DNA from: an uncultured Actinomycetes bacterium | GTDB taxonomy: Bacteria; Actinomycetota; Acidimicrobiia; IMCC26256; JACDBD01 | DNA: 64,000 nucleotides | Assembly (NCBI GenBank): GCA_963768605.1 | Contig: CAVYIP010000008.1 | Span: forward strand, 102,684-166,683 | Direction: 5' to 3' | Notes under the pieces: generated by a model | The model's input: only the letters and a program-made list of their open reading frames with translations | Databases searched by the model: none | What the model was told of the DNA's origin: nothing | Shown: one piece after another, positions 19,394-41,487 of the stretch | How the letters are laid out: each line of letters begins with the position of its first letter | Position numbering within the stretch: position 1 is the stretch's first letter | Translations under genes and position numbers: made by a program

Positions 19394-19413
19394 TATACTA
19401 ACCGGTCGGTACA
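19394..19413. promoter_or_regulatory. operator-like site, copy a of the recurrent TGTACCGAYCRGT motif
   Basis: The reverse complement reads TGTACCGACCGGTTAGTATA. Lies in the divergent spacer between the Rieske and BVMO genes and abuts the BVMO ATG. Confidence 0.5.
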
Positions 19414-21084
19414 ATGAACCCCTCCGGACCCGCACCCGACGAGCGCGCGCGTCGCAACGCGGCCGAGGTCGACGTCCTGGTCGTCGGCGCCGGCATCACG
19501 GGCATCTACCAGCTGTACCGCGCACGTGAAGCAGGTTTCTCTGCGCTGCTGCTCGAGGCGGGTGGTGGCGTGGGCGGTACCTGGTACTGGAACCGCTACC
19601 CCCAGGCACGGTTCGACTCGGAGAGCTACACCTACGGCTACCTGTTCTCGAAAGAGCTGTTCGAAGAGTGGGAGTGGCAAGAGCACTTCGCGCAGCAACC
19701 GGAGACCGAGCGCTACCTCAACCACGTGGTCGACCGGTTCGACCTTCGGCGCCACATGCGATTCGGCGCCAAGGTCACCTCGGCCGCGTACGACGAGTCG
19801 TCGGGGAAGTGGACCGTCGTGGTCGGCGACGGCACCGCGTTCCGGGCGCAATTCTTCATCGCCGCGACCGGCGTCCTCTCGGTGCCGTACTTCCCGGACG
19901 TGCCGGGGCGCGACGACTTTCGGGGTGAGTCGTACCACACGGGGTTGTGGCCGGCGACGCCGGTCGATTTCGCGGACAAGCGCGTCGCAGTCATCGGTAC
20001 CGGATCGAGTGGCGTCCAGCTGATCCCGGCCATCGCCGGCGAGGTTGCCTCCCTGACGGTGTACCAACGCACCGCCAACTGGTGCACACCGCTCAACAAC
20101 GCTCCGATCACGCCGGACGAGCAGGCGAAGCTCAGGGCTGAATTCGAAGCGATGTGCGAGACGCTGAACACATCGCCGAGCGGGTTCCTCCACGCCGCGC
20201 ACGACCGCGCCACCTTCGACGACTCGAAAGAGGAGCGGTGGGCGTTCTTCGAGAAGCTGTGGAACAGCCCCGGCTTCACGAAGCTCACCGGCAACTACAC
20301 CGACCTGTTGTTCAACGAGGCCGCGAACGCAGAGTGGTGCGAGTTCATCGCCGAGAAGATCCGGAGCGTCGTCGAGGACCCCGAGACGGCGGAGAAGCTG
20401 ATCCCGAAGGACCAGCTCTTCGGCGAGAACCGGCCTCCGTACGTGACCGGCTACTACGAGGTGTTCAACGAGCCGAACGTCTCGCTCGTCGACCTCAAGC
20501 AGACGCCGATCGTGCGCATGACCGAGAGTGGGATCGAGACGGCCGACGGCGTGCGGGAGCTCGACATCGTGGTGTGGGCGACCGGTTTCGACTTCGGCAC
20601 CGGCGCGCTCATGCGCATGGGGATCCGCGGCCGCCACGATCGCGCGCTCGTGGACGACTGGGCCGATGGTCCGAGCACGTTCCTCGGCGTCCAGACCACC
20701 GGCTTCCCGAACTTCTTCTTCCCCGGAGGGCCGCACGCCGCGGCCGGCAACAACCCCCGGTACAACGGCGACCAGGTCGACTTCATCACGGACACACTCG
20801 AGTACGTGCGCGACCACGGCTTCGACACGATCGAAGTGGATCCCGCCGCCGAAGAGGCGTGGACCAACATGGTCGACGCCGGCGCGTCAAAGACCCTCTT
20901 CGGTGGGGAGAAGAGCTACTTCTTCGGAGCCAACATCCCCGGAAAGCCCCGCCGGTACCTCCTGAACTCGGGCGGCCGGCCGAAGCTCCACGCGATGATC
21001 GCCGACCTTCGCGAGAACGACTACAAGGCATTCAGGCTGTCGAATTCGTCCCACGCCACGCGCACCACGGCGCAGAGGAGCTGA
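19414..21084 (+). CDS. Baeyer-Villiger monooxygenase (flavin, type I)
   Basis: 556 aa uninterrupted. GAGITG and GTGSSG dinucleotide motifs plus the BVMO fingerprint FRGESYHTGLWP. Confidence 0.9.
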   Translation: MNPSGPAPDERARRNAAEVDVLVVGAGITGIYQLYRAREAGFSALLLEAGGGVGGTWYWNRYPQARFDSESYTYGYLFSKELFEEWEWQEHFAQQPETERYLNHVVDRFDLRRHMRFGAKVTSAAYDESSGKWTVVVGDGTAFRAQFFIAATGVLSVPYFPDVPGRDDFRGESYHTGLWPATPVDFADKRVAVIGTGSSGVQLIPAIAGEVASLTVYQRTANWCTPLNNAPITPDEQAKLRAEFEAMCETLNTSPSGFLHAAHDRATFDDSKEERWAFFEKLWNSPGFTKLTGNYTDLLFNEAANAEWCEFIAEKIRSVVEDPETAEKLIPKDQLFGENRPPYVTGYYEVFNEPNVSLVDLKQTPIVRMTESGIETADGVRELDIVVWATGFDFGTGALMRMGIRGRHDRALVDDWADGPSTFLGVQTTGFPNFFFPGGPHAAAGNNPRYNGDQVDFITDTLEYVRDHGFDTIEVDPAAEEAWTNMVDAGASKTLFGGEKSYFFGANIPGKPRRYLLNSGGRPKLHAMIADLRENDYKAFRLSNSSHATRTTAQRS

Positions 21085-21087
21085 GCG

Positions 21088-21603
21088 ATGGCGATCGATC
21101 GTCAGGAGTCCCCGTACCGACGGGGGAACCGCTATGACCGGCTGCCGATCCCGATGGTCACGGAGCACTGCATCGCCGTCGACGGAGGGGCCGTCCAGCT
21201 CGTTGTGGAGTCCCGGAGGTTGACGAACGAGATCATCGCGGCTGCCGTCCACGACGGCGTCGAACCGGAGATGGCCTTCGACGACTTCGGCGCCACGCTC
21301 CACGTCTGCGGTACGGCCGACGGTCTCGAGCACCTGCGCTTCGACTGCTTCGAGAACGAGCCGCACTACCACTACATCGAGCAGGCGAAAGCCGCGAACA
21401 CCGTGGTCCGCATCGACGAGCTGGCCGTCGGCGATCCCGTCGAGTTCTCGCTCGCCTGCGTCGAGCACCACCTCCCCGACATGCTCCGTCACTGCGGTGT
21501 CGCCGACCTGGCTGACGAGGTCGCCGGCCGGCCCGACCAGGTCAGCGCGGCGATCGCCGAGGTCCGCGAGCTCATGAGGAAGGCCCGCGACCCGGTCGCG
21601 TAG
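21088..21603 (+). CDS. hypothetical protein
   Basis: 171-aa uninterrupted ORF tightly packed between the BVMO and LLM genes. No family recognised. Confidence 0.55.
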   Translation: MAIDRQESPYRRGNRYDRLPIPMVTEHCIAVDGGAVQLVVESRRLTNEIIAAAVHDGVEPEMAFDDFGATLHVCGTADGLEHLRFDCFENEPHYHYIEQAKAANTVVRIDELAVGDPVEFSLACVEHHLPDMLRHCGVADLADEVAGRPDQVSAAIAEVRELMRKARDPVA

Positions 21604-21612
21604 ATTGCGACG

Positions 21613-22440
21613 ATGCGATTCGGCCTCGATGTAGCGCAGCAGCGGATGCCGTGGGACGAGGTGGTCAGCCGCGTCCAGTTCGCCGAGGAGCTCGGCTTCG
21701 ACGGCGCCTGGGGCTTCGACCACTTCCAGCCCATGTACGGCGAAGGACCGGGCGAGACGTTCGACGGCATGACGACGCTCGCCGCGCTCACGGGCGTGAC
21801 GTCGCGCATCCGGCTCGGGCTGCTCGTGGCCGGGGTGACCTACCGGCACCCTTCGGTGTTCGCCGCCCAGGCCCTCACCATCGACCACGCCTCGCACGGC
21901 CGGCTCGAGCTCTCGCTCGGCGCGGCGTGGTACGACAAGGAGCACATCGAGCTCGATATCCCGTTCCCGCCGACGCCGGCGCGCTTCGACTTGCTCGAGG
22001 ACGCGCTCGAGATCGTGAACCGGCTGTTCACCGGCGACGTCGTGTCGTACGACGGGCGCGTCGTGTCGCTGCGCGACGCGCAGCTCCGTCCGTTGCCGGT
22101 GCAGCAGCCGCACCCGCCGATCTGGATCGGCGGCAGCGGTCCGCGGCGAACGCTCCCCCTCGTCGCTCGCTACGCCGACGTGTGGCACACGTGGGGGACG
22201 CCCAATTCGTTGCGCGGGACGAACGAACGGCTCGACGAGCTCGCGACCGAAGCCGGACGCGATCCCTCGTCGATCATGCGGGCAGGCTCGCTGTCGCTCG
22301 ACGACCTCGACACCGCGCGCAAGCACGCGGCGAAGTGGCGGGACGCGGGCTACGGCTATCTCGTCTGCGGCTGGCCCGAACGCGGCCGGGCCCAGGTCGA
22401 AGGGTTCGCCCGCGACGTCCTGCCCGAGTTCGCCGACTGA
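21613..22440 (+). CDS. LLM-class F420/flavin-dependent oxidoreductase
   Basis: 275 aa uninterrupted. MRFGLDV...GFDGAWGFDHF, RLELSLGAAW, PPIWIGGSGPRRTL are typical of the LLM family. Confidence 0.85.
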   Translation: MRFGLDVAQQRMPWDEVVSRVQFAEELGFDGAWGFDHFQPMYGEGPGETFDGMTTLAALTGVTSRIRLGLLVAGVTYRHPSVFAAQALTIDHASHGRLELSLGAAWYDKEHIELDIPFPPTPARFDLLEDALEIVNRLFTGDVVSYDGRVVSLRDAQLRPLPVQQPHPPIWIGGSGPRRTLPLVARYADVWHTWGTPNSLRGTNERLDELATEAGRDPSSIMRAGSLSLDDLDTARKHAAKWRDAGYGYLVCGWPERGRAQVEGFARDVLPEFAD

Positions 22441-22449
22441 ACCACCGGC

Positions 22450-23508
22450 TCAGACGGTCGCGACCGGCGTCGCCGGGGAGCTCACCGCTCCGGGAAGCCG
22501 CAGCGGGGGCGCAGTGAGCAGGAATCGACTCCGGTTGTGCTCGCGCAGCCAGGTCGCGAGCTCGTGGAGATACCACAGCTCTCCGAGGGGGACGCCGAGC
22601 CGGAAGAGGCAGAGGTGGTGGATCGGGAGGAACGAGTGCCGGCTCTCGTCGCGATCCCGACCGAGCAGCCCTTCGACCGCGTAGTTGTCCGCCACCAGCG
22701 CCGAGATCTGCGACTCGGTGATCCACTCCAGCAATGACTCGTCCCGCGCGTCGAGATAGGTGCACATCGTGTGGATCTGCACGGGATCCGGGTCGCGGTT
22801 CCATTCGAGGACCTTCGTGGCGAAGCCGGTGTGCAACAGGAGCATGTCGCCCGGCTCCACGACGACGCCGTCCGCCGCCATGATCTCCTCGAGTGTGTTC
22901 CGGTCGACTCCACGCCAGTCGTGGCCCAGGTGGTGGGCCAGGTCGACGAGGACACCGCGCCCCTGCACTCCCGCGAAGGCCATGTGCTCCATGCCGAGGT
23001 GGTGCGCGAAGGAGAGGTGCTTGCCGCCGTCCCCCGCCGCGTCGGGCTGCGGCCCGACCAGGTCGACGCCGGCGCGGTACCCGTTGTAATAGACGGGCTC
23101 CTCGTTCCCGTCGCCGTCGGCATCGAACTCGGCGCCGACGTGGGCGAGCGAGTCCCATTGCGTCGAGTACTGCAGCGCGAGGGTCACGACGTCGTCGGCC
23201 CACACGTCGACGTAACGGGGATCGCCGTAGTCCCCCATCTCACTCATGTGGACGTTGTAGAAGGTGCCGGGATTGCCCTGCATGTCCTCGGTGGGCGCGA
23301 GAACCGGCGGGTGGCGCCGCTGGTTCAGCGCGGTGCCACCCGGGTAGTCGAGCGGCAGGCTCAGGCAGAAGCTGATGCCGGCCTCGACCTCGCGCACGCC
23401 CTGGAGGACCTTCTCGGGCGTGAGCAGATTGATGCGGCCGAGCTCGTCGTCCTCGCCCCAATCGCCCCACGTCGAGCCGGGCGGGCGTTGCTTCCACCGC
23501 TTCGTCAC
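22450..23508 (-). CDS. cyclase-family protein (kynurenine formamidase-like fold)
   Basis: 352 aa uninterrupted. GRINLLTPEKV N-terminus and His-rich core resemble the putative cyclase family. Confidence 0.65.
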   Translation of the reverse strand: MTKRWKQRPPGSTWGDWGEDDELGRINLLTPEKVLQGVREVEAGISFCLSLPLDYPGGTALNQRRHPPVLAPTEDMQGNPGTFYNVHMSEMGDYGDPRYVDVWADDVVTLALQYSTQWDSLAHVGAEFDADGDGNEEPVYYNGYRAGVDLVGPQPDAAGDGGKHLSFAHHLGMEHMAFAGVQGRGVLVDLAHHLGHDWRGVDRNTLEEIMAADGVVVEPGDMLLLHTGFATKVLEWNRDPDPVQIHTMCTYLDARDESLLEWITESQISALVADNYAVEGLLGRDRDESRHSFLPIHHLCLFRLGVPLGELWYLHELATWLREHNRSRFLLTAPPLRLPGAVSSPATPVATV

Positions 23509-23566
23509 GACTCGACTCCTTCCGGTCGGGAGCGGCCCGATCCTAAGCCGCGGAACGTGCGTTGCC

Positions 23567-23586
23567 TGTACCGACCGGTTGGTTTA
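23567..23586. promoter_or_regulatory. operator-like site, copy b of the recurrent motif
   Basis: TGTACCGACCGGTTGGTTTA, 9 nt upstream of ATG 23595, in the divergent spacer with the cyclase-family gene. Confidence 0.5.
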
Positions 23587-23594
23587 GCGTGGAA

Positions 23595-24843
23595 ATGATG
23601 ACCCGGAAGGACTTCGTCGTCTCGGGCGACGGGCACCTCCTCGAGCCGACGGATCTCTTTCGCTCTCGCCTGCCGACGCACCTGCGGGATCGCGCGGTCT
23701 GGGAGGAGGACTTCGAGATCGAGCCGCTCGTCGAGGGCGGCGCCCGGATCTTCCGGCGCTTGCACACTCCGGGATACGAGGGCTGGACGATCTCCCGGTA
23801 TCGCCAGACGGGCGGCCGAATGCCGGAGGGTGACCCCGATCGGATCCTCGAGGACATGGACCTCGACGGCATCGACGTCCAGGTCATGCACCCGAACCTG
23901 TCGCTGTTCGGCCTCTACTCCGACGACCACGAGCTCTCGATGGCGCACGCCCGCGTGTACAACGACTACGTCGCCGAGCGGTTCTCGCCGTACTTCTCGC
24001 GGCTCGTGCCCACCGCTCCCGTGCCGATCACCGATGTCGACGACGCGGTCGCCGAGATCGAGCGCGTCGCCGCGGCCGGCTTCCGGGCGATCCTCCTGCC
24101 CGGCGACTCCGCCGAAGCCGTACTACTCGCGCGACTTCGACCCGATCTGGGCCGCAGCGCGGGCGAGCGGCGTGCACGTGTTCTTCCACACCCAGACCGG
24201 AGGCGTGAAGGTCGACGATCCCGCGTCGACGACGCTCAAGGTCGTCATGGAGTCCGCCGCGCAGGTCAACCAACCCATGACCGAGAAGTCGGCATCGAAG
24301 CGGATGATCACGCAGTCGATCTACGGCACGATCGTCCCCCAGCAGCTCATGTGCGAGCTGATCGGTGGCGGCGTTCCCGAGCGGTACCCCGACCTCCACT
24401 TCGCGCTCATCGAGTTCAACGCCCATTGGCTGGCGTCGCTGATGGGTGCGATGGACAAGTGCTGGGTGACGGGCATCGGCCAGGACGCCGACTGGTGGTT
24501 GGGCTACTGGGACGACGCCCGGCCCCCGACCGACCAGCCCAGCATGGCGCAGCTGTTCCGCCTGAACGAGAAGTGGCCGTACCCGCTGACGCCGAGCGAG
24601 TACGTCCGGCGCCAGTTCCACGTGCAGTTCCAGGACGATCCCGTGGCCGTCGCGTGCCGGCACCTCACCGGCGTGTCGACCATCGTGTGGGGCTCCGACT
24701 ACCCGCACGCGGAAGGGACGTTCCGCGGCAGCCGGGAGCTGATCGCGAAGCAGTTCGCCGGCGTCCCCGCCGACGAGCGGGCCGCGATGCTCGGCGGAAC
24801 CCTCGGCCGGCTGCTCGGGCTGGAAGTCCCGGTCCTCGCCTGA
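23595..24843 (+). pseudogene. PF04909-type amidohydrolase (frame-disrupted)
   Basis: ATG 23595 (MMTRKDFVVSGDGHLLEP). One frame switch near ~24105. C-terminal part has WGSDYPHAEGTF. Confidence 0.8.
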
Positions 24844-24855
24844 GCCCCGGACGAT

Positions 24856-25929
24856 CTAGGAGCGTTCCCCCAACGGCACGATGCCGCGCGGCCGCGTCAA
24901 CGGCAGGTCGTTGTACGTCGCGATCCCCGGCGCCGCGGCCACGACGGCCGGGATCGCGTGGATCGGCGGCATCGCCGTCATGATGTGCCCGAGCTCCATG
25001 AAGTCCGCCATCGTCTCGGCTTCGAAGTCGGGCGGCGGGAGGAAGCCGATCGTGGCCGTCACCGTCGGCCGCCCCTCGACCTGGATCACCCAGCCGTCCT
25101 GGTCGATCTTCCAGTCGGGGTCGAGCGACTGACCCTTGCGCCACCGGAAGTTCAGCTCGACGACCGTCCTGTCGCCGACCAGCCCCTTCCAACTCGCGGC
25201 GACGCCCGCGACGCATCCCGCCCCGATGGTCCACGACCCGAGGTCGAGGTCGGCGGTGGTCTGCGCGAACTCGGCCTCGCAGCGCACCTCGTCGAGCTCG
25301 ACGTCGAGCGCGTCGGCGACGAGCCGCACGGCCTCGCCGAAGATGGCCGTGCCGTGTGTCGTCATCGCGAGCAGGTCGGGGTGGTCGATCGGCTTGCCGA
25401 ACCCCACCGGGAGCTCGGTCGCGGGCGAGTCGTAGTACGTGGTGTCCGCCGCCTCGTTGACCGTGACCTTGTCGACCCGATCGCAGACCATCGTCGACAC
25501 GATGGCCAACAGCTCGGCGAAGCCGGGACTGACGCCCGATCCGAACATGGTGGCGCCGCCGCTCCGACACGCCTCGACGATCCGCTCGCGGTCGGGGCCG
25601 AGGTTGCGCCCGGTGATGAACGACGCCGTCGCCACGACGTTCACGCCGGCCGAGAGGATGCGCACCAACTCGTCGGAGTCCACCCACATCGGGTTGTACA
25701 CGACGCAGTCCGGTTGCAGCGCGAGCAGCGCGTCGACGTCATCCGTGGCGGCGACACCAAGCGGATCGATGCCACACAGCTCACCGACATCGCGGCCCAC
25801 CTTCTCGGTCGACCAGGCGTAGCACCCGACCAGCTCCAGCGCAGGGTTCGCTGCGATCGCCCGCACCGAGCTCTTCCCGACATTCCCCGTCGTCCACTGG
25901 ACGATCCGAATGCGATCTGTGTTCGCCAC
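24856..25929 (-). CDS. NAD(P)-binding dihydrodipicolinate-reductase-like protein
   Basis: 357 aa uninterrupted. N-terminal Rossmann motif IVQWTTGNVGK. Last gene of the crotonase-TetR operon. Confidence 0.65.
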   Translation of the reverse strand: MANTDRIRIVQWTTGNVGKSSVRAIAANPALELVGCYAWSTEKVGRDVGELCGIDPLGVAATDDVDALLALQPDCVVYNPMWVDSDELVRILSAGVNVVATASFITGRNLGPDRERIVEACRSGGATMFGSGVSPGFAELLAIVSTMVCDRVDKVTVNEAADTTYYDSPATELPVGFGKPIDHPDLLAMTTHGTAIFGEAVRLVADALDVELDEVRCEAEFAQTTADLDLGSWTIGAGCVAGVAASWKGLVGDRTVVELNFRWRKGQSLDPDWKIDQDGWVIQVEGRPTVTATIGFLPPPDFEAETMADFMELGHIMTAMPPIHAIPAVVAAAPGIATYNDLPLTRPRGIVPLGERS

Positions 25930-25932
25930 GCG

Positions 25933-26601
25933 TCAAGACTCCGAGCCGGCGATCCCGCGGATGAAGATGTCGGCGAACGGCTTCGCCACGTCGCGAGCCG
26001 ACAGGCGGCCACCCGCCTTCAGCCACAGGTACGTGTAGTTGTGCATGCCGAGCCACGCGAGGGCGGTGAGCCTCGCGTCGACGTCGCGGAACTCCCCGGA
26101 ATCAATGCCGGCCTGCACGATCCCTTCGACCCTTCGCTCGTACTCCCGCCGGCGCCCGCGGAACTTCTCGGCGCGCTCGGCCGTGAGCGCCGGGAACTCG
26201 TGGAGGAAGACCCAGACGTGATCGGGATAGCGGTGGATGACGTCGAGCAGCTCGTCGCCCAGCATGGCCAGCTGTGCAGACGGCGATCCGCCCGCCTGGG
26301 CGACGCGATCGGCGCCCAGCATCACCTCGTCCATCACACGATCGTGGATGGCGGCGAGGAGCTCCTCCTTCGACCCGATGTAGTGGTAGAACGCGCCCTT
26401 GCCGAGACCGTTGACCTCGCACAGCTCCGCGATGCCCGTGGCGTGGTAGCCGCGTCGCGCGAAAACCGGCGCGGAGGTGTCGACAATCACGTCGCGACGC
26501 GCCTGCCACTTTTCGCTGCGTCGGGGCTCGTTGCTCCCTCCGGTTCGTGGCATGGGCTCCGACGGTACTCGGGCGCGCACGCTCATCAGCGACCTTGCCA
26601 C
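25933..26601 (-). CDS. TetR-family transcriptional regulator
   Basis: 222-aa ORF; the true start may be an internal Met. HTH YHATGIAELCEVNGLGKGAFYHYIGSKEELL. Confidence 0.85.
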   Translation of the reverse strand: MARSLMSVRARVPSEPMPRTGGSNEPRRSEKWQARRDVIVDTSAPVFARRGYHATGIAELCEVNGLGKGAFYHYIGSKEELLAAIHDRVMDEVMLGADRVAQAGGSPSAQLAMLGDELLDVIHRYPDHVWVFLHEFPALTAERAEKFRGRRREYERRVEGIVQAGIDSGEFRDVDARLTALAWLGMHNYTYLWLKAGGRLSARDVAKPFADIFIRGIAGSES

Positions 26602-27368
26602 TGCGGCGCGCGCTTCTCGGCGAACGCGGAGAGCCCTTCGCTCGCATCCTCCGACGCGAGCAGCTCGTCCAACAGCTCCTTCGAGATTCGGCGCAGCGTG
26701 TCGTCCCGCTCGTGCGCCGCCAAGACGACACGCCGGCTGGCACGCACCGCGAGTGGAGCCGCCGAGGCGATCTGCCCCGCGAGGCGGAGTGCCTCGTCCA
26801 GCGCGGCGCCCGGCTCGACCAGCCGGCTCACGAGCCCGAGGTCGTACGCGCGGCGAGCATCGATCGGCTCACCGGTGAGGATGGCGTCCATTGCCGGACC
26901 CTGACCGATCGCGCGCGGGAGCCGGAACAGTCCCCCGGCGGCGGCGATCAGGTTGCGCCGAACCTCCGCGAGCCCGAACGCCGATCGGGACGTCGCCACG
27001 ACGACGTCCGCCGCGAGGACGATCTCCAAACCGCCCGCGGTCGCCAGGCCGTCGACGGCGACGAGGATCGGCTTGATGCGCTCGCGATACACGAACCCGG
27101 CGAACCCGCCCCGCTCGGTGTCGAGCGTCGCTGCGGAACCGGTCTCCCTGATGACCTTGAGGTCGGCGCCCGCGCAGAAGACCGGGTGCTCCTGATCCGC
27201 GGTGTCGGCGCACAGGACCCCGACCCGGACCTCGGGATCGTCCTCCAGCCGGTCCACGGCGGCCTCGAGGCCGAGCGCCACCTCGCGATTGACCGCGTTG
27301 CGAGCCTCGGGGCGGTTGAGGGTGATGACGCCGATCCGGTCGGAGGACGAGTAGAGCACGGCGGTCAA
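26586..27368 (-). CDS. enoyl-CoA hydratase/isomerase
   Basis: IGVITLNRPEARNA, VDGLATAGGLEIVLAADV. The ORF extends to 27425, but that extension covers the operator site, so a TTG/GTG start near 27368 is preferred. Start uncertain. Confidence 0.8.
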   Translation of the reverse strand: MTAVLYSSSDRIGVITLNRPEARNAVNREVALGLEAAVDRLEDDPEVRVGVLCADTADQEHPVFCAGADLKVIRETGSAATLDTERGGFAGFVYRERIKPILVAVDGLATAGGLEIVLAADVVVATSRSAFGLAEVRRNLIAAAGGLFRLPRAIGQGPAMDAILTGEPIDARRAYDLGLVSRLVEPGAALDEALRLAGQIASAAPLAVRASRRVVLAAHERDDTLRRISKELLDELLASEDASEGLSAFAEKRAPQWQGR

Positions 27369-27404
27369 AGACAAGGCTCCCGCGTCGAGGTGCTGGCCCA
27401 GAAG

Positions 27405-27424
27405 GATAATGACTGGTCGGTACA
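27405..27424. promoter_or_regulatory. operator-like site, copy c of the recurrent motif
   Basis: The reverse complement reads TGTACCGACCAGTCATTATC. Lies in the divergent spacer between the crotonase and SDR genes. Confidence 0.45.
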
Positions 27425-27453
27425 CCCGTCAGGGGTGTGAGGAAGGTCAGGGG

Positions 27454-28356
27454 ATGAACGAGCACAGCTTCGAGGGGCGCGTCGCCGTCGTCACCGGCGC
27501 GGGACGCGGAATCGGGCGAGCCGATGCACGCCTGCTCGCCGACCGGGGCGCGCGGGTCGTCGTCAACGACCTCGGTGGCTCGATGGAGGGAGTCGGTGCG
27601 GACGCCGAACCCGCGTCCACCGTCGCTGCCGAGATCGTCGCCGCCGGCGGAGTCGCGATCGCCGACAACAGCGACGTGGCCACGCCTGCCGGCGCACAGG
27701 CGCTCGTCGATTCGGCGGTCGCGCAGTTCGGGCGCCTCGACATCGTGATCAACAACGCCGGCATCGTCAGATGGGCGGGCTTTCCGGAAGCCGACGCGGA
27801 CAACCTCGCGAGCCACCTCGCCGTGCATGTCACCGGCTCGTTCAACACCACCCGCGCCGCATGGCCGCACATGGTCGAACAGGAGTACGGCCGAGTCGTC
27901 ATGACGACTTCCGCGGGGATGTTCGGACTGCCGAACAACGTCTCCTATGCCACCGCGAAGGGTGCCGTCATCGGCCTCACGCGCAGCCTCACCACCGCCG
28001 GCGCCGCTCACGGCATCAAGGTCAACCTCATCGCACCCGCGGCGATGACGCGTATGGCAGGCCAGGCTGCAGATGAGGCCGGCTCTCCGCAGATGTCGCC
28101 GGACCTCGTCGCGCCGATGGCCGCGTTCCTCGCCCACGAGGCCTGCCCGGTCAGCGGCGAGATCTACGCCGCCGGCGCCGGTCGCTTCGCGCGCATCTTC
28201 ATCGCCTCGACCCAGGGGTACGTCCACGCGGGATCGGAGCCGACGATCGAGAACGTCGCCGAGAACTGGGCGACGATCAACGACGAGACCGGGTACTACG
28301 TCCCTACCGATCTGCCCGACTGGTCGGCGGCCTTCATGGCACACCTGCGCCCCTAG
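27454..28356 (+). CDS. short-chain dehydrogenase/reductase
   Basis: ATG 27454 (MNEHSFEGRVAVVTGAGRGIG). YATAKGA active-site region. Uninterrupted. Confidence 0.85.
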   Translation: MNEHSFEGRVAVVTGAGRGIGRADARLLADRGARVVVNDLGGSMEGVGADAEPASTVAAEIVAAGGVAIADNSDVATPAGAQALVDSAVAQFGRLDIVINNAGIVRWAGFPEADADNLASHLAVHVTGSFNTTRAAWPHMVEQEYGRVVMTTSAGMFGLPNNVSYATAKGAVIGLTRSLTTAGAAHGIKVNLIAPAAMTRMAGQAADEAGSPQMSPDLVAPMAAFLAHEACPVSGEIYAAGAGRFARIFIASTQGYVHAGSEPTIENVAENWATINDETGYYVPTDLPDWSAAFMAHLRP

Positions 28357-28383
28357 GCACACCGGAACGCGGTCGAGAGCGGG

Positions 28384-31014: not shown

Positions 31015-31173
31015 GCATCCGTCCTCGACAGGATCAGCCGTCGAAAGTCTGGACGGTCACCCCTTGGAGTGCCAACGCTCGGGATCCGCATCAATTCGGC
31101 GATCGCGGCTTGCTCGGTGGCTACGCAATCGCTTCGCGGAACGCGGCGTGCATGGGTGCCAAGGGATGCCTGG

Positions 31174-31992
31174 TCAGAGGAGGGCGGCGGCGAACTGGTC
31201 GTGGTGGTCGGTCCACCAGCGGCGTCGGCGGTCGTAACGCTCGCCGCCACCGGTCCGGTTCCACATCGCGATGGTGTTCGCGTCGCCTGCGTCGACGCTG
31301 CGTCGGACGGCTGCTTCGACGCGGTCGATGGCATCGTTCATGGCGGTGAGGAGCTCTGGCCGACTGTCCCGGTCCAGTCCGTAGGCGTCGGCAACGAGTC
31401 GTAGCCGTGCCGGTCGGTCGGCGGGCCGCCAGCCGAGCCGGGCCAGGTCGAAGTCGTCGTCGATCGGTACGCAGAGGCGGGCGAGCTGCGCGAGGTCGTA
31501 GACGGGGCGGCCAGGGGCCGCGAACTCGAAGTCGAGCAGCGCAACGGCGATGCCGTCACGGAAGACGATGTTCGAAGGCTCCGCGTCGTTGTGGCACACG
31601 AGCGTTCCGCCCGCAGGGTCAGCCAGAGCGTCGTTCCAGGTGAGACCCTGAGGGTCGAACCCTCGGGCGGCGTCGTGCAGCCCGCGCAGCAGCCTGGCGA
31701 TGGACACGAGCGCGGTGTCGGACTGGCTCCAGTCCGGATAGGGCGCCAGGGGGACCTCGCCGTCGATGAACACGAGGCGCTCGCGTCCGTCCTCGTCGAT
31801 GCCGACTGGTAACGAGGCGCCCTCGAATCCGGCGTGTCTCACCGCCCGTAGGAACGCGTGGATCGAACCCGAGTGCGGACTCGAGGGGCGAAGAACATGC
31901 GGACCGACGCGGACGACCTGGCCTGCGTTCGCGATCCCGCCATCGAGCTGCTGCTCAGGCACACCGCCACTTTGACAGACACGGATCGGCAT
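31174..31992 (-). CDS. APH-like phosphotransferase (aminoglycoside/choline kinase fold)
   Basis: 272 aa uninterrupted. Catalytic loop HNDAEPSNIVF and LDFEFA (DFG-like). Confidence 0.75.
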   Translation of the reverse strand: MPIRVCQSGGVPEQQLDGGIANAGQVVRVGPHVLRPSSPHSGSIHAFLRAVRHAGFEGASLPVGIDEDGRERLVFIDGEVPLAPYPDWSQSDTALVSIARLLRGLHDAARGFDPQGLTWNDALADPAGGTLVCHNDAEPSNIVFRDGIAVALLDFEFAAPGRPVYDLAQLARLCVPIDDDFDLARLGWRPADRPARLRLVADAYGLDRDSRPELLTAMNDAIDRVEAAVRRSVDAGDANTIAMWNRTGGGERYDRRRRWWTDHHDQFAAALL

Positions 31993-32285
31993 TCCTGAAG
32001 GGGTGGGGCCGTGTCAAGGTGTTGGTGCTGGTCGCGAGTTTGGGTGTGGTGGACGTGGGCGCGGGTGGCTCACGTGGCGCCGGATGGTTGGGTTGTCGTG
32101 TTCCGCACCACGGTTCGTCGATCTGAGGTGGGCAGGCTCGGCTGCCGGGCATTCCTTCGCTGACTTGTTGGCAGCATGGTGCGTTCCGGCCACGACCAGG
32201 CGGGCTCAAGCAGTTCGTCGACCGCGCCGCGACGTGCGGGGGTCATGCCGATTTCGAGCGCGCGTCGGGTCGTGTCCGAGCGTGG

Positions 32286-33293
32286 TCATGCGGCGTTGGC
32301 CAGGCAGCGGATCGTGCCGTCGCGTAGGCCGTAGTAGACGAGGGTGAGGACTTTGCGAGCGATCGCGACGGTCGCCTTGTTCTTGCCGCGCCGCTCGGCG
32401 ATCTTGCGGTAGTCGGCTGCGAGTTTGCCGCCGCCGTGATAGCGGACGGTGCCTTCGACGACAGCCCAACGCACGAGCCGCGATCCTTGCTTGGTGAGTT
32501 GCCCTCGGTGCACGGTGGTGTCGGACTCTTTGTGTTTGGGCGTGAGCCCGGCCCACGAACACAACGCGGCCGCCGATCGGAAGCGGGTGACGTCGCCGAT
32601 CTCGGCCACCAAGATCGCGGCCATGGTCGGGCCGATCCCGTTGATTGTTTGGATCGCCCGATAGCCGACATGGCCGCGCAGGCGGCTGCGGATCTGCGCC
32701 TCGAGCATCGTCACCTCACGGTCGTAGAGCTCGATCAGATGGCGGAGTGATTCCACTCGGATCGCGTATGCGTCACCGAGCTGCAAGTCGTCGAGTTGCG
32801 CGTTGCCGGCCTGACAGAACATGTCGGACACCGAAGGCAGCACACCCGCTTTGGCCATCACCGCATGCACTTGCGCCTTGAGCCCGGACCGCAACGCGAC
32901 CAGCTTCGCCCGATAGCGCACCAGCTCGCGGAGCTCACGCGTCGCCGGCGGCGCGATCCACGCCTCCGGCAACCGACCGAGCCGGAGCATGTCGATCAGA
33001 TCGATCGCGTCACGTTCGTCGTTCTTCACGCGGCGTGTGCCCCAGTTCAACCCCGACGGGTTCGCTAGATGCACAGTCGCGCCCTGCTCCCGCAGCCAAT
33101 CGACGATCCAATACCAGCCATAGGTCGCTTCGATCACGACCTCGGGGCTCGGACCCGCCTCCGCGACCACCGCCGCGATCGCCAAGGGATCATTAGGCAC
33201 GCGCACCGAGCTCAACTTCTCGCCCGCGCTGTTCTTCCGGACGATCACTGACCGTCGACGATGAAAGTCGATCCCGACATACTGTCGACCCAT
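32286..33293 (-). mobile_element. IS110-family transposase gene (element ends not delimited)
   Basis: ATG 33293 (MGRQYVGIDFH), 335 aa uninterrupted. DEDD-type N-domain and C-terminal IQTINGIGPTMAA...LTPKHKESDTTVHRGQLTKQGS are typical of IS110. Flanked by ~220- and ~290-bp non-coding stretches. Confidence 0.9.
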
Positions 33294-33512
33294 AGGGGCC
33301 TCCCTTCCTCCGAAGAGGAACACGTGTGTGAAGCACCGAGTCTGAACCGACTCGGACCTCACGGGGAGCGGAGGCCCCGCTCCTTCATCGCATCAGTTCT
33401 GAGCGACTGAAGAGAAGGCGTCGGAGGTCTCGGAACAACGGGAACACGGCGAGGGCGAAGTACACGGGCGGAGCGTGAGCCGGTAGCGGCCGCCCTCGAT
33501 CCGGTCTAAGAA

Positions 33513-34151
33513 GTGCGGATGGCCGAGGGCAACACTCCCCGTTCCATCAGTCCGGCCCGCATGACCGGGTTCAGCGACGGCGTGTTCTCCATCGCCGCGA
33601 CCCTGCTGGTACTGGAAATCGCGCTCGCGTCGGGCGACACCGCACTGAAACAAGTACTGAACACATGGCCTGCCTACCTCGGCTACCTGATCAGCTTCTT
33701 GACGATCGGTGCAGCGTGGCTCGGACATAGCGCGGTCACAGACCGACTGGACCGTGTGGACTCGGTGCTTCTGCGGATCAATCTGCTGTCGCTCCTCGTC
33801 ATCGCGTTCTTGCCCTTCCCGACGAAACTGATGGCCGACGCGATCCACCACTCCGACGAGGAGCGCGTGTTCGTCACCTTCTACGGCCTAACGCTGCTGA
33901 CGATCCGGCTGCTCGGCGCCGCCCTTGACGCGTACGCCCGGCGCGAGAACCTCTACACAACCGGCGCTGCCGACGACGACCTAATAGCCGATCGGCGAAC
34001 CCTGCTCCCCGTCCTGATTGCCTACGCAGTCGTCATCCTGGTCGGGCTTGCGCTCCCCACCGTCGCCATCGTCCTGTATCTCGCGGTCGCTGTGTTCCTC
34101 GTCGTGCCGTTCCACGAGATCCGCCGCATGTTCTCCCGTCAATCAAACTGA
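33513..34151 (+). CDS. TMEM175/DUF1211-family membrane protein (putative K+ channel)
   Basis: 212-aa ORF (GTG 33513 or ATG 33519). RMTGFSDGVFSIAATLLVLE signature and multiple TM helices. Confidence 0.8.
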   Translation: MRMAEGNTPRSISPARMTGFSDGVFSIAATLLVLEIALASGDTALKQVLNTWPAYLGYLISFLTIGAAWLGHSAVTDRLDRVDSVLLRINLLSLLVIAFLPFPTKLMADAIHHSDEERVFVTFYGLTLLTIRLLGAALDAYARRENLYTTGAADDDLIADRRTLLPVLIAYAVVILVGLALPTVAIVLYLAVAVFLVVPFHEIRRMFSRQSN

Positions 34152-34383
34152 CCCGCTACCAGAAACACCCCATCGCTGAAAGCTTCCATCCGCGACGGAC
34201 TGATCGACGATTGGGCATCGGCGCATATTGCCCGTTCTGGTGCGAGGTCGCTAACACTGATGAGCTGATGGCCTCGCATGGAGGCGTCCCGAAAATGTTC
34301 CTAGGAGCCGCCGAACAGATCGGCGGTCATGCGCCTGTCTCCCCGACCCCTGCCTGACTTCATATGACGTCGAACGATCTCGG

Positions 34384-35079
34384 CTACGTCACCGACTTCG
34401 CCGCGGTCTGGATCAGGCCGGCAACCTCGTCGGGGTGCGAAACCATCCCTACATGACCTGACACGAGCTCCGAGGTAGTGGCGCCCATGCGCTTGGCGAA
34501 GAGACGCTCGACGTCGGGCGGGATCACCTCGTCGTTCTGTGCGACCGCGTACCAGGTGGGAACGTCGTTCTTCCACGCAGGGGTCCCCATCACTTCCTCG
34601 AGGGCGGCCGCGGGGAGAGGCTGCTGCACGGCATACATGACGTTCGCTTCGATCGGATCGACATCCGCCGCAAAGTGCTGCACGAAGTCATCTTGGGGAA
34701 GCCAGGCGAAGCCCTGTTCATCGATGCGCAAATGCGCCAACGCCGGAGTCGGCTCACCTTGCGCGAGCAACGCGCCAATCGATTCGCCGGCATCGAGGCC
34801 GAAGCCCGAGATGTACACCAGTCCGACGACATTCGGGGCATCCGTACCAAGCGCAGTCATGATCTGACAGCCGTAGGAATGTCCGGCAATAAGGGTCGGG
34901 CCCGTCAACGGCGCCAGCACCTGCCGAAGCCGTGCGACATTGGCCTCGAGTGTCGTCAGTGGAAACTGCGGCGCCGTCACGTTGTACCCCGCCTTTTGCA
35001 GGAGCCTGATGACGCCGCTCCAACTGGAACCGTCCGCCCAGGCACCGTGCACCAAGACGATGTTCGGTTGCTCACTCAT
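34384..35079 (-). CDS. alpha/beta hydrolase
   Basis: 231 aa uninterrupted. IVLVHGAWADGSSW and nucleophile elbow GHSYG. Confidence 0.85.
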   Translation of the reverse strand: MSEQPNIVLVHGAWADGSSWSGVIRLLQKAGYNVTAPQFPLTTLEANVARLRQVLAPLTGPTLIAGHSYGCQIMTALGTDAPNVVGLVYISGFGLDAGESIGALLAQGEPTPALAHLRIDEQGFAWLPQDDFVQHFAADVDPIEANVMYAVQQPLPAAALEEVMGTPAWKNDVPTWYAVAQNDEVIPPDVERLFAKRMGATTSELVSGHVGMVSHPDEVAGLIQTAAKSVT

Positions 35080-35208
35080 ACGGTCATTCCTCCCCTGCTG
35101 AGACGGACACGCTCATGCCGGCCGACTGCCGGACCCGCACGACACAGATTGCCCGATCGCGCGGGTCCGCGCCGCCGGAGTGACCGCCGCCTCACTCGGG
35201 GTCGACCG

Positions 35209-36732
35209 TCAGGAGGTGCGGGCCCGCAACTCTCTCTTCAGGACCTTGCCCGAAGGGTTCCTCGGCAGCGCATCGACGAGCGCCACGTGCTTCGGGACCT
35301 TGTAGCGCGCGAGCTGCCGACGGCAGTGCTCGATGAGCTCTTCGGGCGTCGTCGTCTCCGAGCTCGAGACGACGTAGGCGATCGGGACCTCTCCCCATCG
35401 ATCGTCGGGACGCCCGACGACGGCCGCTTCGACAACCGACTCGTGCTCGTAGAGCACGCGCTCGACCTCGGAGCCGGCGATGTTCTCACCACCGGACACG
35501 ATCATGTCCTTGAGTCGATCGACGATGTAGAGGTATCCGTCCTCGTCCTGGACGCCGATGTCTCCGGTGTGGAACCAGCCACCGGCGAACGCCGCACTCG
35601 TTGCGTCGGGGTCCCGCCAGTAGCCCTTGAACACCTTCGGGCCGCGAAGGACCACTTCTCCACGCTCTCCCGGCGACACCGGGGCGCCGTGCTCGTCCCA
35701 GATGTCGAGCTCGAGATACTGACAGGGCCGACCGACGCTGCCGAGCTTGGTCACGATGCTGTCCCGGTCGAGGAACGTGTCGCCCGAGACGGTCTCGGTG
35801 AGGCCGTACGCGTCGGCGAACCACGCCGACGGGAACGTCCGTTGGATCCGCTCGATCAGCGGGATCGGCATCTTCTCGCCGCCGTTGATCACCAGGCGCA
35901 CCGACGACAGATCGCGCTGCTCGATGTCGGGCAGCGCCATGATCGCGTTCACCATCGCCGGTGCGAGCCACACGGTCGTGACACGCGATCGCTCGATCTC
36001 GTCGACGACGTCGGACGCCTCGAACACGCGATGGACGATGATCGTGGCGCCCACGGCGATCAGCGAGGTCGTCGTGAGGTCGAGCGCACCCACGTGGTAG
36101 AGCGGGCCGCAGGCCAGGCCGAGGTCGGCAGCGGTGAACCCGAACTCGGCGATGTGCGCGTAGTTCTTCCACGCCAGGTTGGCGTGGGTGATCATGACCC
36201 CCTTCGGGCGCCCGGTAGTCCCGGATGTGTACATCAGGCGGTGGATGTCATCACCCTGGACGTGCGCACGGACCGATCGAGCGGACCCGGCACCCAGATC
36301 GGCGAACCGCTCCCACCCTGCGACCTCCTTGGTCGAGATGCACACGCGGAGGAGGTCGTCCTTCAACTCGTTCGTCGCGTCGTTCGCGAGCTCGATGAGC
36401 TGGTCGTCGCAGACGAGCGCGCGAGCTCCGGAGTGCTCGAGGATGAACCGCAGCTCCGGCGCGGCGAGCCGCCAGTTGATCGGCATCGCGATGGCACCCA
36501 GGTAGTTGGCGGCGAAGATCGTCTCCAGGAACTCGATGCAGTTGTACGAGAGCAACGCCACGACGTCGCCGGTGGCGACACCGTGTTCGTGCAGCCCGGC
36601 TGCCAGCGCGGCCGAGCGCGCGGCCATCTCGCCGTAGGTGACGGTCGCGTCGCCCTGGATCGCGAGCGGCTTGTTCGGCGTGCGGCTCGCGTGGTGCTCG
36701 AGCACTCCGACCCAACTCATGTCCGGATGCAT
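35209..36732 (-). CDS. long-chain acyl-CoA ligase (AMP-dependent)
   Basis: ATG 36732 (MHPDMSW), 507 aa uninterrupted. YTSGTTGRPKG, GLTE, HTGDIG, GKVLKRELR. The 833-aa ORF is read-through into the SDR genes. Confidence 0.9.
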   Translation of the reverse strand: MHPDMSWVGVLEHHASRTPNKPLAIQGDATVTYGEMAARSAALAAGLHEHGVATGDVVALLSYNCIEFLETIFAANYLGAIAMPINWRLAAPELRFILEHSGARALVCDDQLIELANDATNELKDDLLRVCISTKEVAGWERFADLGAGSARSVRAHVQGDDIHRLMYTSGTTGRPKGVMITHANLAWKNYAHIAEFGFTAADLGLACGPLYHVGALDLTTTSLIAVGATIIVHRVFEASDVVDEIERSRVTTVWLAPAMVNAIMALPDIEQRDLSSVRLVINGGEKMPIPLIERIQRTFPSAWFADAYGLTETVSGDTFLDRDSIVTKLGSVGRPCQYLELDIWDEHGAPVSPGERGEVVLRGPKVFKGYWRDPDATSAAFAGGWFHTGDIGVQDEDGYLYIVDRLKDMIVSGGENIAGSEVERVLYEHESVVEAAVVGRPDDRWGEVPIAYVVSSSETTTPEELIEHCRRQLARYKVPKHVALVDALPRNPSGKVLKRELRARTS

Positions 36733-36758
36733 CGGCGGCGCGTCCTCCACAGAATCCC

Positions 36759-37505
36759 CTACGGCGCCGCGTAGCCGCCGTCGACCACGATCGCCGACCC
36801 TGTCGTCCAGCGGGAAGCGTCGCTCGCGAGATACGAGTAGGCCCCTACCAGGTCGGCTGCACTTCCCAGGCCGAGCGGATGCTTGGCCGCGATCGCGTCG
36901 ACGGCCTCCGGCGGGAGGTCCGCGTGGATCCCCGAACGAAACGTCCCGGGGCACACGCAGTTGACACGTATCCCGTCCCGCGCGTACTCGACTGCCGCCA
37001 CCTTCGCGAGTTGGATCACGGCAGCCTTCGTCGCGCAGTACGGAGCGGCGTGCGACCACGCGGTGAGACCGGAAACCGACGCCGTGAGGACGATCGACCC
37101 GGACTTCTGTGCGCGCATGACCGGCACCGCGGCGCGGATGCCGTTGACGGCACCGAGGACGTTGACCCGGAACGCGCGCTCCCATTCCTCGGTCGCCAGG
37201 TTGTGGATGCGACCATTCGCAGAGAGCACCCCGGCGTTGCTGATCAGCACGTCGAGCCGGCCGAAGCGGTCCACCGCGAGGCCGATGACTGCTTCGACGT
37301 CCGCGACCTCGCCCACGTCCGCCCGCAACGTCTCGACCGCGCCACGACGCTGCGGTAAGCCGTTCACCGTGGCTTCGAGCGAGGGTGCACTGACGTCGCT
37401 CAGTACGACGTCCGTATCGGGCTCGCCCGCGAACCGGCTGGACAGCTCGGCGCCGAGGGTTCCGCCCGCGCCGGTGATCGCGACGACGCGTCGCCCTTCG
37501 CTCAT
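36759..37505 (-). CDS. short-chain dehydrogenase/reductase
   Basis: ATG 37505, 248 aa uninterrupted. TGAGGTLG, YCATKAA. Confidence 0.85.
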   Translation of the reverse strand: MSEGRRVVAITGAGGTLGAELSSRFAGEPDTDVVLSDVSAPSLEATVNGLPQRRGAVETLRADVGEVADVEAVIGLAVDRFGRLDVLISNAGVLSANGRIHNLATEEWERAFRVNVLGAVNGIRAAVPVMRAQKSGSIVLTASVSGLTAWSHAAPYCATKAAVIQLAKVAAVEYARDGIRVNCVCPGTFRSGIHADLPPEAVDAIAAKHPLGLGSAADLVGAYSYLASDASRWTTGSAIVVDGGYAAP

Positions 37506-38281
37506 ACGAGCAGGTACCCGCCGTCGACGTTGAGCACGGTGCCAGTGACGAACGCCGACGCGTCGGAGGCCAGGAACTGATACGCGCCGGGCAGGTCGGT
37601 GGACGCTCCCCAGCGTCGTTGCGCCGTGTGCCCGAGCACGCCGGGCCCGAGCTCGGGGTTGTTCTTCCACCGGTCGGCCAACGGCGAGTCGAACCAACCT
37701 GGAGCGACAACGTTCACGGTGATGGCCGAGGGCGCGAGATCGAGCGCGAGACCCTTCGCCATGCCGACGAGGCCGGCCTTCGACGCGCTGTACGCAGCGA
37801 GCCCTTCGCGCGGCCGCTCCCCCAGGACCGAGCCGGTGAAGATCAGGCGCCCGCCCTCGCGCATCACCCGGGCGGCGGCGCGGGCCCCGAGGAACGCCCC
37901 CGTGAGGTTCACCTCGAGAACCTCCCGCCAGACCGACGGATCGGTCCCGCGCGGTCCGGCCAGGACGGGCGAGATCCCCGCGTTGCAGATCCAAACGTCG
38001 ACGCCGCCCCATTCGGCGACGGTGGCATCGGCGACCGCCTCGTTGAACTCCCCGTCGGTCACGTCGCCGCTGAGCACGAGGGATGGTCCGGGAAGCTCTG
38101 CGGCGACCGTCTTCAGGTCGGTCTCCGTCCGTGCCACCAGCGCCACCCGCGCGCCGCCCTGCGAGAAGGCATGCGCGAGCACCCGACCGAGTCCCCGGCT
38201 GGCGCCGGTGATCACCACACGCTTCGCGGTCACGTCCGCAACACCAGCGAAGGACGCGGGGATGTCGATCTGGTCGGGCAT
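37502..38281 (-). CDS. short-chain dehydrogenase/reductase
   Basis: ATG 38281, 259 aa uninterrupted. TGASRGLG, YSASKAG. 4-nt overlap with the next SDR. Confidence 0.85.
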   Translation of the reverse strand: MPDQIDIPASFAGVADVTAKRVVITGASRGLGRVLAHAFSQGGARVALVARTETDLKTVAAELPGPSLVLSGDVTDGEFNEAVADATVAEWGGVDVWICNAGISPVLAGPRGTDPSVWREVLEVNLTGAFLGARAAARVMREGGRLIFTGSVLGERPREGLAAYSASKAGLVGMAKGLALDLAPSAITVNVVAPGWFDSPLADRWKNNPELGPGVLGHTAQRRWGASTDLPGAYQFLASDASAFVTGTVLNVDGGYLLV

Positions 38282-38308
38282 CGCCGTTCCCCTTGTGCCG
38301 ATGCGGTT

Positions 38309-38328
38309 TGTACCGATCAGTACAATAC
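38309..38328. promoter_or_regulatory. operator-like site, copy d of the recurrent motif, overlapping a TACAAT box
   Basis: TGTACCGATCAGTACAATAC in the 54-bp divergent spacer. TACAAT (38321-38326) lies 9 nt upstream of ATG 38336. Confidence 0.5.
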
Positions 38329-41452: not shown

Positions 41453-41487
41453 GGGCGGATCCTATTGGACCGCTCGGTACAGGCCTC

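Follow-up and report, generated by a model that had tools for sequence, protein, structure and literature searches.

The 64-kb stretch of DNA examined in this study (the window; 68.5% GC), taken from an uncultured Actinomycetes bacterium, contains a cluster of genes of catabolic appearance together with the gene of a TetR-family repressor, and a short palindromic motif recurs between the genes of this cluster. Genes were identified by Pfam and NCBIfam scans, and the enzymes and the TetR protein were also compared with the sequences in the PDB. The gene of a Rieske oxygenase alpha subunit (17984..19348, minus strand; Pfam and PDB) diverges from an operon encoding a Baeyer-Villiger monooxygenase (BVMO), a DUF7700 protein and a luciferase-like monooxygenase (19414..22440, plus strand; Pfam). 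A cyclase-family (PF04199) gene (22450..23508, minus strand; Pfam and PDB entry 5ibz) is likewise divergent from an Amidohydrolase_2 gene (23595..24843, plus strand) that has an apparent frameshift at 24101. Then follows an operon of crotonase (ECH), TetR and DapB-like (DAP_DH_C) genes (24856..27368, minus strand; Pfam), which faces away from a gene for a short-chain dehydrogenase/reductase (SDR; 27454..28356, plus strand; Pfam and NCBIfam). Within this operon, the TetR-family gene (25933..26553, minus strand; TetR_N plus TetR_C_24 in Pfam) encodes the protein that we propose as the binder of the motif. Further to the right, an SDR-SDR-acyl-CoA synthetase operon (35209..38281, minus strand; Pfam and NCBIfam) is divergent from a gene for the alpha and beta parts, probably fused, of a 2-oxoacid dehydrogenase E1 component (38336..40302, plus strand; apparent frameshifts at 38884 and 39013), and the cluster ends with an acyl-CoA dehydrogenase gene (40305..41452, minus strand; apparent frameshift near 41365).

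The enzymes give few clues to the substrate. The best PDB match of the BVMO is OTEMO (E=1e-144), with nearly equal scores for PAMO and CHMO; OTEMO is the BVMO of the camphor pathway and acts on a CoA ester. The PDB relatives of the Rieske protein are generic, being carnitine and aromatic Rieske oxygenases, and that of the cyclase is an uncharacterised cyclase-family protein. None of the cluster enzymes reaches an NCBIfam equivalog cut-off from which a substrate could be assigned. When 9.5 kb of the cluster was compared with plasmids by megablast, the single match was a Streptomyces BVMO gene (75.5% identity), and a look-up of the exact BVMO sequence in an index of contigs gave no entry. An E1 homologue on a plasmid of Streptomyces sp. 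NBC_00080 (locus L081, 9797-11791) is, by its annotation as 'E1 component subunit alpha/beta', one protein of 664 aa. In view of this homologue, the alpha-beta fusion, already assumed in an earlier sequence-only reading of this DNA, is probably real, although the copy in the window is broken by frame errors. No E2 or E3 genes are found in the cluster.

The motif has a 13-nt core, TGTACCGAYCRGT, which matches the window exactly four times, at 19401-19413 (minus strand), 23567-23579 (plus), 27412-27424 (minus) and 38309-38321 (plus). In contrast, no match was obtained in 100 dinucleotide-preserving shuffles of the window. The sequence-only reading had reported these four cores, and their coordinates and strands, as well as the four 20-mers quoted around them, are exact; all four sites are real, but a fifth had been missed. 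This fifth site, TGTACCGAGCGGTCCAATAG, has one mismatch to the core, is located at 41462-41481 on the minus strand and lies 9 nt upstream of the GTG start of the acyl-CoA dehydrogenase gene. We refer to the five as operators a to e. A position weight matrix (PWM) made from sites in other genomes and then run on the window scored the five sites at 22-32 bits and everything else in the 64 kb at 8 bits or less.

Operator a, TGTACCGACCGGTTAGTATA (19394..19413, minus strand; 30.5 bits), lies in the spacer between the Rieske and BVMO genes and abuts the BVMO ATG at 19414 (distance 0 nt). Operator b, TGTACCGACCGGTTGGTTTA (23567..23586, plus strand; 27.6 bits), is in the cyclase/amidohydrolase spacer, 8-11 nt from the amidohydrolase ATG at 23595 or 23598. 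Operator c, TGTACCGACCAGTCATTATC (27405..27424, minus strand; 22.3 bits), stands between the crotonase-TetR-DapB-like operon and the SDR gene, 29 nt from the SDR ATG at 27454, and is predicted to be the autoregulatory site of TetR. Operator d, TTGTACCGATCAGTACAA (38308..38325), is an 18-bp palindrome in the spacer between the SDR pair and E1, scores 32.2 and 21.6 bits on the two strands and is 7 nt from the E1 ATG at 38336. Operator e, on the minus strand upstream of the acyl-CoA dehydrogenase GTG at 41452, scores 22.1 bits. The Pfam assignments agree with the earlier placement of sites a to d in divergent spacers, and the measured distances bear out that each is within about 30 nt of a start codon. 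The spacers had also been called low in GC; they are below the window, but only mildly (54-66% versus 68.5%), and the 20-mers themselves have 40-55% GC. From the order of the genes and the positions of the sites, it follows that no transcription unit of the cluster lacks a site at its 5' end.

In its full form the site is a palindrome, TTGTACCG-N2-CGGTACAA, or a variant of 20 bp with its centre at ACC|GGT. An ideal copy would read TTGTACCGA|TCGGTACAA, a palindrome whose central 16 bp are perfect in one of the related loci described below (L018). Sites d and e follow a register of 16-18 bp with symmetry about GA|YC. Sites a, b and c fit better as 20-bp palindromes about ACC|GGT, in which the half-site TGTACCGACC is invariant and the other half (TAnAC-YAACC) is degenerate; site a, for example, which the sequence-only reading had called a degenerate palindrome, has 7/10 plus 7/10 positions in agreement. 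Which flavour a site has is kept for each type of site across species.

The sites are closely associated with promoter-like hexamers. Immediately 3' of the core there are conserved TAnnnT hexamers. At site b, the site with its 3' hexamer reads TGTACCGACCGGTTGGtnTAnnnT, and a conserved TTGcnT ends on the first T of the core, so that operator b would fill the 17-nt spacer between the -35 and -10 elements; in the window these elements are TTGCCT and TAGCGT. At site d, the TACAAT box noted earlier is present and would be a -10 element inside the right half-site, and at site e a TAGGAT lies 6 nt before the GTG. As the hexamers sit so close to the start codons, several of the genes appear to be leaderless or nearly so. 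This promoter geometry is our own reading of the conserved TAnnnT and TTGnnT hexamers, between or over which the sites are placed.

To see how widely the motif is kept, we used the TetR protein as the query and one genome per species, which gave 80 related loci with a total of 1.43 Mb. All come from metagenome-assembled genomes (MAGs) that carry the labels Acidimicrobiia, Acidimicrobiales, Microthrixaceae or 'Actinomycetes', a few of them evidently wrong. The loci contain 203 exact copies of the 13-nt core, against about 0.1 expected from base composition, and 79 of the 80 have at least one. Copies were assigned to coding or non-coding DNA by comparing tblastn alignment segments with the gaps between them. 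A core as frequent inside genes as between them would have spoken against an operator. What we found is that 195 of the 203 copies lie in the gaps between homology-supported coding segments, although the gaps make up 18.6% of the cluster span; seven of the remainder are at the extreme 5' edge of alignments from over-long queries, and a single copy is in about 460 kb of flanking DNA. A first classification by stop-to-stop open reading frames with high GC3 had placed half of the sites in 'coding' sequence. It was rejected as an artefact, because frames stay open over long distances at 68.5% GC and N-termini are over-extended.

The cluster proteins of these loci are 65-98% identical and are found in at least four gene arrangements around TetR. 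In all arrangements the sites stay with their partners, namely Rieske/BVMO, cyclase/amidohydrolase, SDR/E1, TetR or crotonase-TetR, and acyl-CoA dehydrogenase. Site a is present with at most one mismatch in 22/22 orthologous Rieske/BVMO spacers and site b in 58 of 59 cyclase/amidohydrolase spacers; for site d in the SDR/E1 spacers the figures are 45/50 with at most one mismatch and 50/50 with at most two. Orthologues of site e read TGTACCGATCGGTCCAATAG and are found with at most one mismatch in 24 of 49 loci, and in the loci without it the acyl-CoA dehydrogenase gene is inside the operon of promoter b. By comparison, the best match in random 150-nt windows of the same loci typically has 4-5 mismatches. 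A lack of conservation before orthologous operons, which would likewise have spoken against an operator, is therefore not what the loci show. In 37 of 79 loci, a site with no more than one mismatch precedes the TetR gene or the crotonase-TetR unit. Alignment of the b spacers (60 distinct sequences) and d spacers (51) shows that the motif and the TTGnnT/TAnnnT hexamers are the sole conserved non-coding columns.

Because the sites overlap promoter hexamers and are richer in AT than the genome, one could ask if the motif is not a protein operator at all, and is instead the promoter element of an alternative sigma factor or a short dispersed repeat such as the remnant of a REP or MITE element. We regard this as extremely unlikely. 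The motif is a palindrome that is found in either orientation with respect to the genes, and the distance of 7-12 nt from TGTACC to TAnnnT does not fit a -35/-10 pair. In addition, conservation ends at 16-20 bp, only 1 of 203 copies is outside the cluster in the flanking DNA, and there is no matching Rfam family.

If the motif is an operator, the question is which protein reads it. The sequence-only reading proposed the TetR protein of the cluster, and gave its gene as 25933-26601; the protein holds as the candidate binder, whereas its start is most likely not at 26601 but at the ATG at 26553, preceded by a GGAG Shine-Dalgarno sequence. The protein has the domains PF00440 (E=8.6e-12) and PF17932, TetR_C_24 (E=2.3e-31), and its AlphaFold model contains nine helices at a pLDDT of 79. 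Its homologues in the 80 loci are 73-90% identical to it (73-92% across families), with a mean identity to the window residue of about 83% in both domains. A phmmer search of the PDB gave 3dcf (2e-24), 3vpr (PfmR, 3e-23), 5k7f (AibR, 1e-17), KstR2 (2e-12), FadR (1e-7) and KstR (1e-5). By Foldseek the top structures were 3DCF, an uncharacterised protein of Thermobifida fusca, 3VPR and 5K7H/5K7Z, which show AibR with isovaleryl-CoA and with operator DNA (TM 0.70-0.75), followed by KstR2, DarR and FadR. Thus both sequence and fold place PfmR and AibR above the other characterised TetR proteins.

PfmR (TTHB023) of Thermus thermophilus HB8 represses operons of acyl-CoA metabolism; its native operators are TTTACCGACCGGTTGG, CCTACCGACCGGTCGG and CTTACCGACCGGTTGG, bound with dissociation constants of 0.3-1 nM, and the optimum obtained by selection is CTGACCGATCGGTCAG (PMC7022988). 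These operators are 14-15/16 identical to sites a and b of the window, and site b, TGTACCGACCGGTTGG, differs from TTTACCGACCGGTTGG in one base (15/16). The similarity is not limited to the operator. PfmR is the closest characterised relative of the cluster TetR, its sites overlap core promoter elements, its own promoter has two sites, and its regulon is made up of an acyl-CoA ligase, SDRs and acyl-CoA dehydrogenases. When the Acidimicrobiia PWM was run on 22.5 kb of pTT27, the sole hit of at least 5 bits was the -153 site of PfmR, at its published position upstream of TTHB023. PfmR reportedly binds as two dimers. There are also differences: the outer operator bases are TGTAC here and T/C-T/C-TAC in PfmR, and the regulon described here has Rieske, BVMO, cyclase, amidohydrolase and E1 genes, none of which is in the PfmR operon. 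That the cluster TetR could be the PfmR orthologue is ruled out by this different gene set and by an identity of 29%.

AibR of Myxococcus xanthus (PDB 5K7F/5K7H/5K7Z) has the operator ACCTACCG-N2-CGGTAGGT, in which Lys47 and Tyr51 of helix alpha3 contact G12, G13 and T14 of the half-site, and it binds DNA only with its ligand isovaleryl-CoA (PMC5389471). The architecture of this operator is that of TTGTACCG-N2-CGGTACAA. Residues K52 and Y56 of the cluster TetR align with Lys47 and Tyr51 and are invariant in 24 homologues. The ligand of AibR is an acyl-CoA. AibR differs in that it controls a biosynthetic operon and has a lower identity to the cluster TetR of 26-28%.

A third system can be likened by its operator. 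In Burkholderia cenocepacia, three separate paa operons have the operator of PaaR (BCAL0210), ACCGACCGGTCGGT, between their -35 and -10 elements, and this operator has been called QacR-like, a dual overlapping inverted repeat (PMC2770484). It has the core ACCGACCGGT in common with the sites of the window, among which both 16-bp and 20-bp symmetry registers likewise occur. PaaR is a TetR-type repressor of phenylacetate catabolism that has one operator before each of several separate catabolic operons, but the paa genes it regulates are absent from our cluster. As the operator core in the window, TGTACCGAYCRGTACA, has the form TACCG-N2-CGGTA, the sequence evidence places the cluster TetR in the PfmR/AibR/PaaR group that recognises such palindromes.

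The mycobacterial regulators KstR and KstR2 resemble the present case in another respect, in that a very conserved TetR protein and one palindrome tie together many operons of one catabolic pathway; KstR2 is, in addition, a moderately close structural relative. The published motifs, TnnAACnnGTTnnA for KstR and AnCAAGnnCTTGnT for KstR2 (PMC1995591, PMC3068626), differ from TGTACCGAYCRGT, in line with the sequence-only reading. Together with a similarity weaker than that to PfmR, they rule out an identity of the cluster TetR with either regulator. No steroid-pathway genes were identified in the cluster. Some homologues of 85-88% identity carry the JGI label 'TetR/AcrR family transcriptional regulator, cholesterol catabolism regulator', which is supported neither by the operator nor by similarity to KstR or KstR2.

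The motif is also found beside TetR homologues in other gene contexts, for which plasmids were scanned with the PWM at a cut-off of 4 bits. On the Streptomyces plasmid mentioned above (L081; TetR 39% identical), a related cluster comprises BVMO, cyclase-family, fused E1 alpha/beta, acyl-CoA dehydrogenase, ECH, CoA ligase and SDR genes and a P450 system, and there are sites in four intergenic regions, upstream of the cyclase gene (AATGTACCGATCGGTCAACA), of the BVMO and of TetR, and in the ECH/ligase spacer. On three Rhodococcus plasmids (L083, L084 and L088; TetR 33-39% identical) the neighbours are quite different enzymes, and the promoter spacer of the TetR operon has two sites such as TTGTACCGATCGATCCAA. 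In a Burkholderia plasmid (L086), ATTGTACCGGTCAGTCCGAA is located about 55 nt upstream of the gene of the TetR homologue. As the sites adjoin TetR homologues amid different genes, the motif, to judge from these sequences, follows the regulator and not the enzymes.

We argue that the five sites are, very probably, operators of the cluster's own TetR-family repressor. The operators would lie in the -35/-10 spacer, or over the -10 element and the transcription start, of one or two divergent promoters. Since they overlap promoter elements, bound TetR would be expected to block RNA polymerase at all nine transcription units, that of TetR included; both the binding to the five sites and the repression by it are deduced from sequence. 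That one repressor, the TetR of the cluster, would account for the sites had been suggested before; the sites upstream of TetR in 37 of 79 loci, the homology to PfmR and AibR, the motif beside homologues elsewhere and the lack of linkage of the second TetR (see below) support this. The sequence-only reading also had physically separate operons (19-28 kb and 36-40 kb) tied into one regulon; in the closest relative, locus L002, less than 1 kb parts the two halves.

Several observations weigh against this interpretation. About half of the 79 loci, mainly those with an AMP-ligase/TetR arrangement, have no good site within 300 nt upstream of TetR, and in the Acidimicrobiaceae arrangement the copies upstream of TetR are at best degenerate; a good site in only 37 loci means that autoregulation is not universal. 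With the PWM, no hit of at least 4 bits was found for the TetR homologues of Pseudonocardia (32% identical) and Deinococcus (33%), and the best hit for that of Streptomyces N50 (41%) has 7.5 bits and is well away from the TetR gene. A strict scan for the E. coli-type sigma-70 consensus in both promoter regions examined returned no promoter. With 29% identity over 182 aa, the cluster TetR is a family member of PfmR and not its orthologue, and since AibR needs its ligand to bind DNA, the direction of the ligand effect cannot be transferred from homology.

The loci without a good site directly upstream of TetR could be taken to mean that a different regulator reads the motif, either an unlinked global factor or a second TetR_N protein that does exist in the window (13093-13788, plus strand; divergent from a long methylmalonyl-CoA-mutase-like gene at 10602-13289 on the minus strand), and that the clustered TetR has another target. 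We consider this very unlikely. The motif matches the measured operators of homologues of the clustered TetR, and it accompanies such homologues in unrelated contexts and in other phyla. The second TetR was rejected as the binder because it is beside the cluster in only 3-5 of the 80 loci and has no site nearby.

The behaviour of AibR, which is among the closest characterised relatives and binds its operator only with isovaleryl-CoA (PMC5389471), raises another possibility: the cluster TetR may bind the sites but need a ligand as co-repressor, or may act as an activator, so that the logic of the switch is reversed. This is unlikely in our view. The genes look catabolic, with oxygenases, a CoA ligase and enzymes of beta-oxidation type, for which derepression induced by the substrate is usual. 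The operators overlap -10 and -35 elements, a position typical of a repressor, and PfmR and Burkholderia PaaR, which have the same type of operator, are repressors.

If the TetR acts as a repressor relieved by a ligand, it is conceivable that this ligand is an intermediate of the pathway, most likely an acyl-CoA thioester produced by the acyl-CoA synthetase of the cluster. We give this proposal slightly less than an even chance. It draws on the ligands of relatives (isovaleryl-CoA for AibR, stearoyl-CoA for FadR) and on the presence of the synthetase in the regulon, and the repressive direction of the effect would follow from the catabolic look of the genes. KstR2, too, senses a CoA thioester.

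More tentatively, the TetR and its operators might be the master switch of an uncharacterised catabolic pathway that is found throughout the lineage, forming a KstR-like regulon for a substrate that would probably be of alicyclic or terpenoid type and be sensed as a CoA thioester. On this tentative view the pathway would comprise the Rieske oxygenase, the OTEMO-like BVMO, the cyclase-family enzyme and the amidohydrolase (possibly hydrolases), the fused E1 alpha/beta, the acyl-CoA ligase and beta-oxidation enzymes, and might be conserved among hundreds of uncultured Acidimicrobiia from soil and, with modifications, on Streptomyces plasmids. The operator classes might tune the promoters, the 16-18 bp and 20 bp symmetries, each kept per promoter, perhaps reflecting different repressor stoichiometries.

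The regulon is, as far as its sequence tells, a TetR repressor/operator system of the PfmR/AibR/PaaR kind; our literature search found no paper describing the motif or the cluster in Acidimicrobiia. It would give an uncultured but abundant soil lineage a well-defined regulon, with a single regulator, a single motif, five operators and nine transcription units, that is conserved in at least 80 species-level genomes. As the operators are nearly identical to those of PfmR and AibR, binding can be tested directly with a synthesised gene and oligonucleotides, and the motif could serve to mark out the regulon in any Acidimicrobiia genome. The regulon also flags a conserved oxygenase/BVMO/E1-fusion cluster whose pathway is uncharacterised, and it lends no support to the label 'cholesterol catabolism regulator' that some homologues have received automatically. 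As cultured carriers exist, with the related cluster in Streptomyces sp. NBC_00080 (TetR homologue at 479146-479853 of plasmid NZ_CP108236.1) and related TetR/operator units on Rhodococcus plasmids (in Rhodococcus sp. WAY2, TetR homologue at 180747-181322 of pRWAY02), the pathway and the effector should be accessible by genetics.

Some smaller features of the regulatory regions deserve mention. In the 32-nt spacer between the crotonase and TetR genes (26554-26585), AGTACCGTCGGAGCC is found just before the TetR ATG, overlapping the GGAG ribosome-binding site. It resembles the operator minus one central base, and the same element lies directly 5' of TetR in loci without the crotonase gene. Possibly it serves as a second, weak site, as the PfmR promoter also has two, or it is merely the ribosome-binding site. 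In one Acidimicrobiaceae MAG, the TetR gene is preceded by two operators in tandem, TGTACCGACCAGTACGGTTT and TGTACCGACCAGTACAGTCT, at a distance of 21 bp (L051, 9618-9658). Loci of the Acidimicrobiaceae type have a conserved leader of 70-100 nt between site b and the amidohydrolase ATG, which the window lacks; examples are L027 (17697-17774), L032 (17593-17676) and L065 (17733-17810), together with about eight others, on the minus strand. Directly 5' of a GGAAGG Shine-Dalgarno sequence, the leader contains the hairpin TCTTGCGT-CCCA-GCGCAGGA, and a second copy of GCGCAGG upstream could pair alternatively. RNAalifold gave 15 pairs with only one compensatory change, and no Rfam family matched.

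Between the left half of the cluster (19-28 kb) and the right half (35-41 kb) lies the stretch 28387-35204, which is about 6 kb longer than in the closest relative. In that relative, L002, which is 94.9% identical over 11.4 kb, only 876 bp are found at the corresponding position and the halves adjoin. The stretch carries unrelated genes, which encode a TPR protein (28384-29238), a DUF4062 plus NB-ARC/AAA protein (29692-31014), an APH-family phosphotransferase (31174-31992), an IS110 transposase (32286-33362), a TMEM175-like channel (33513-34151) and an alpha/beta hydrolase (34384-35079), and a pair of STAND-type NTPases in it looks like a module of the defence type.

Single-base indels relative to L002 break the reading frames of the amidohydrolase (24101), E1 (38884 and 39013) and acyl-CoA dehydrogenase (41365) genes. 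Two of them, at 24101 and 38884, fall in short runs of C, and the 18.7-kb alignment to L002 has more than 50 such indels. These frameshifts are most likely errors of long-read assembly rather than marks of pseudogenes. A molybdopterin oxidoreductase at 15008-18062 likewise appears split into two frames, with the Molybdopterin and Fe4S4 domains at 15008-17716 and Molydop_binding at 17076-18062; indels relative to L002 fall at 17009-17582, and the split is probably another frame error. At the far end of the window, a tRNA gene (61775-61848, minus strand) is the sole Rfam match at the gathering threshold.

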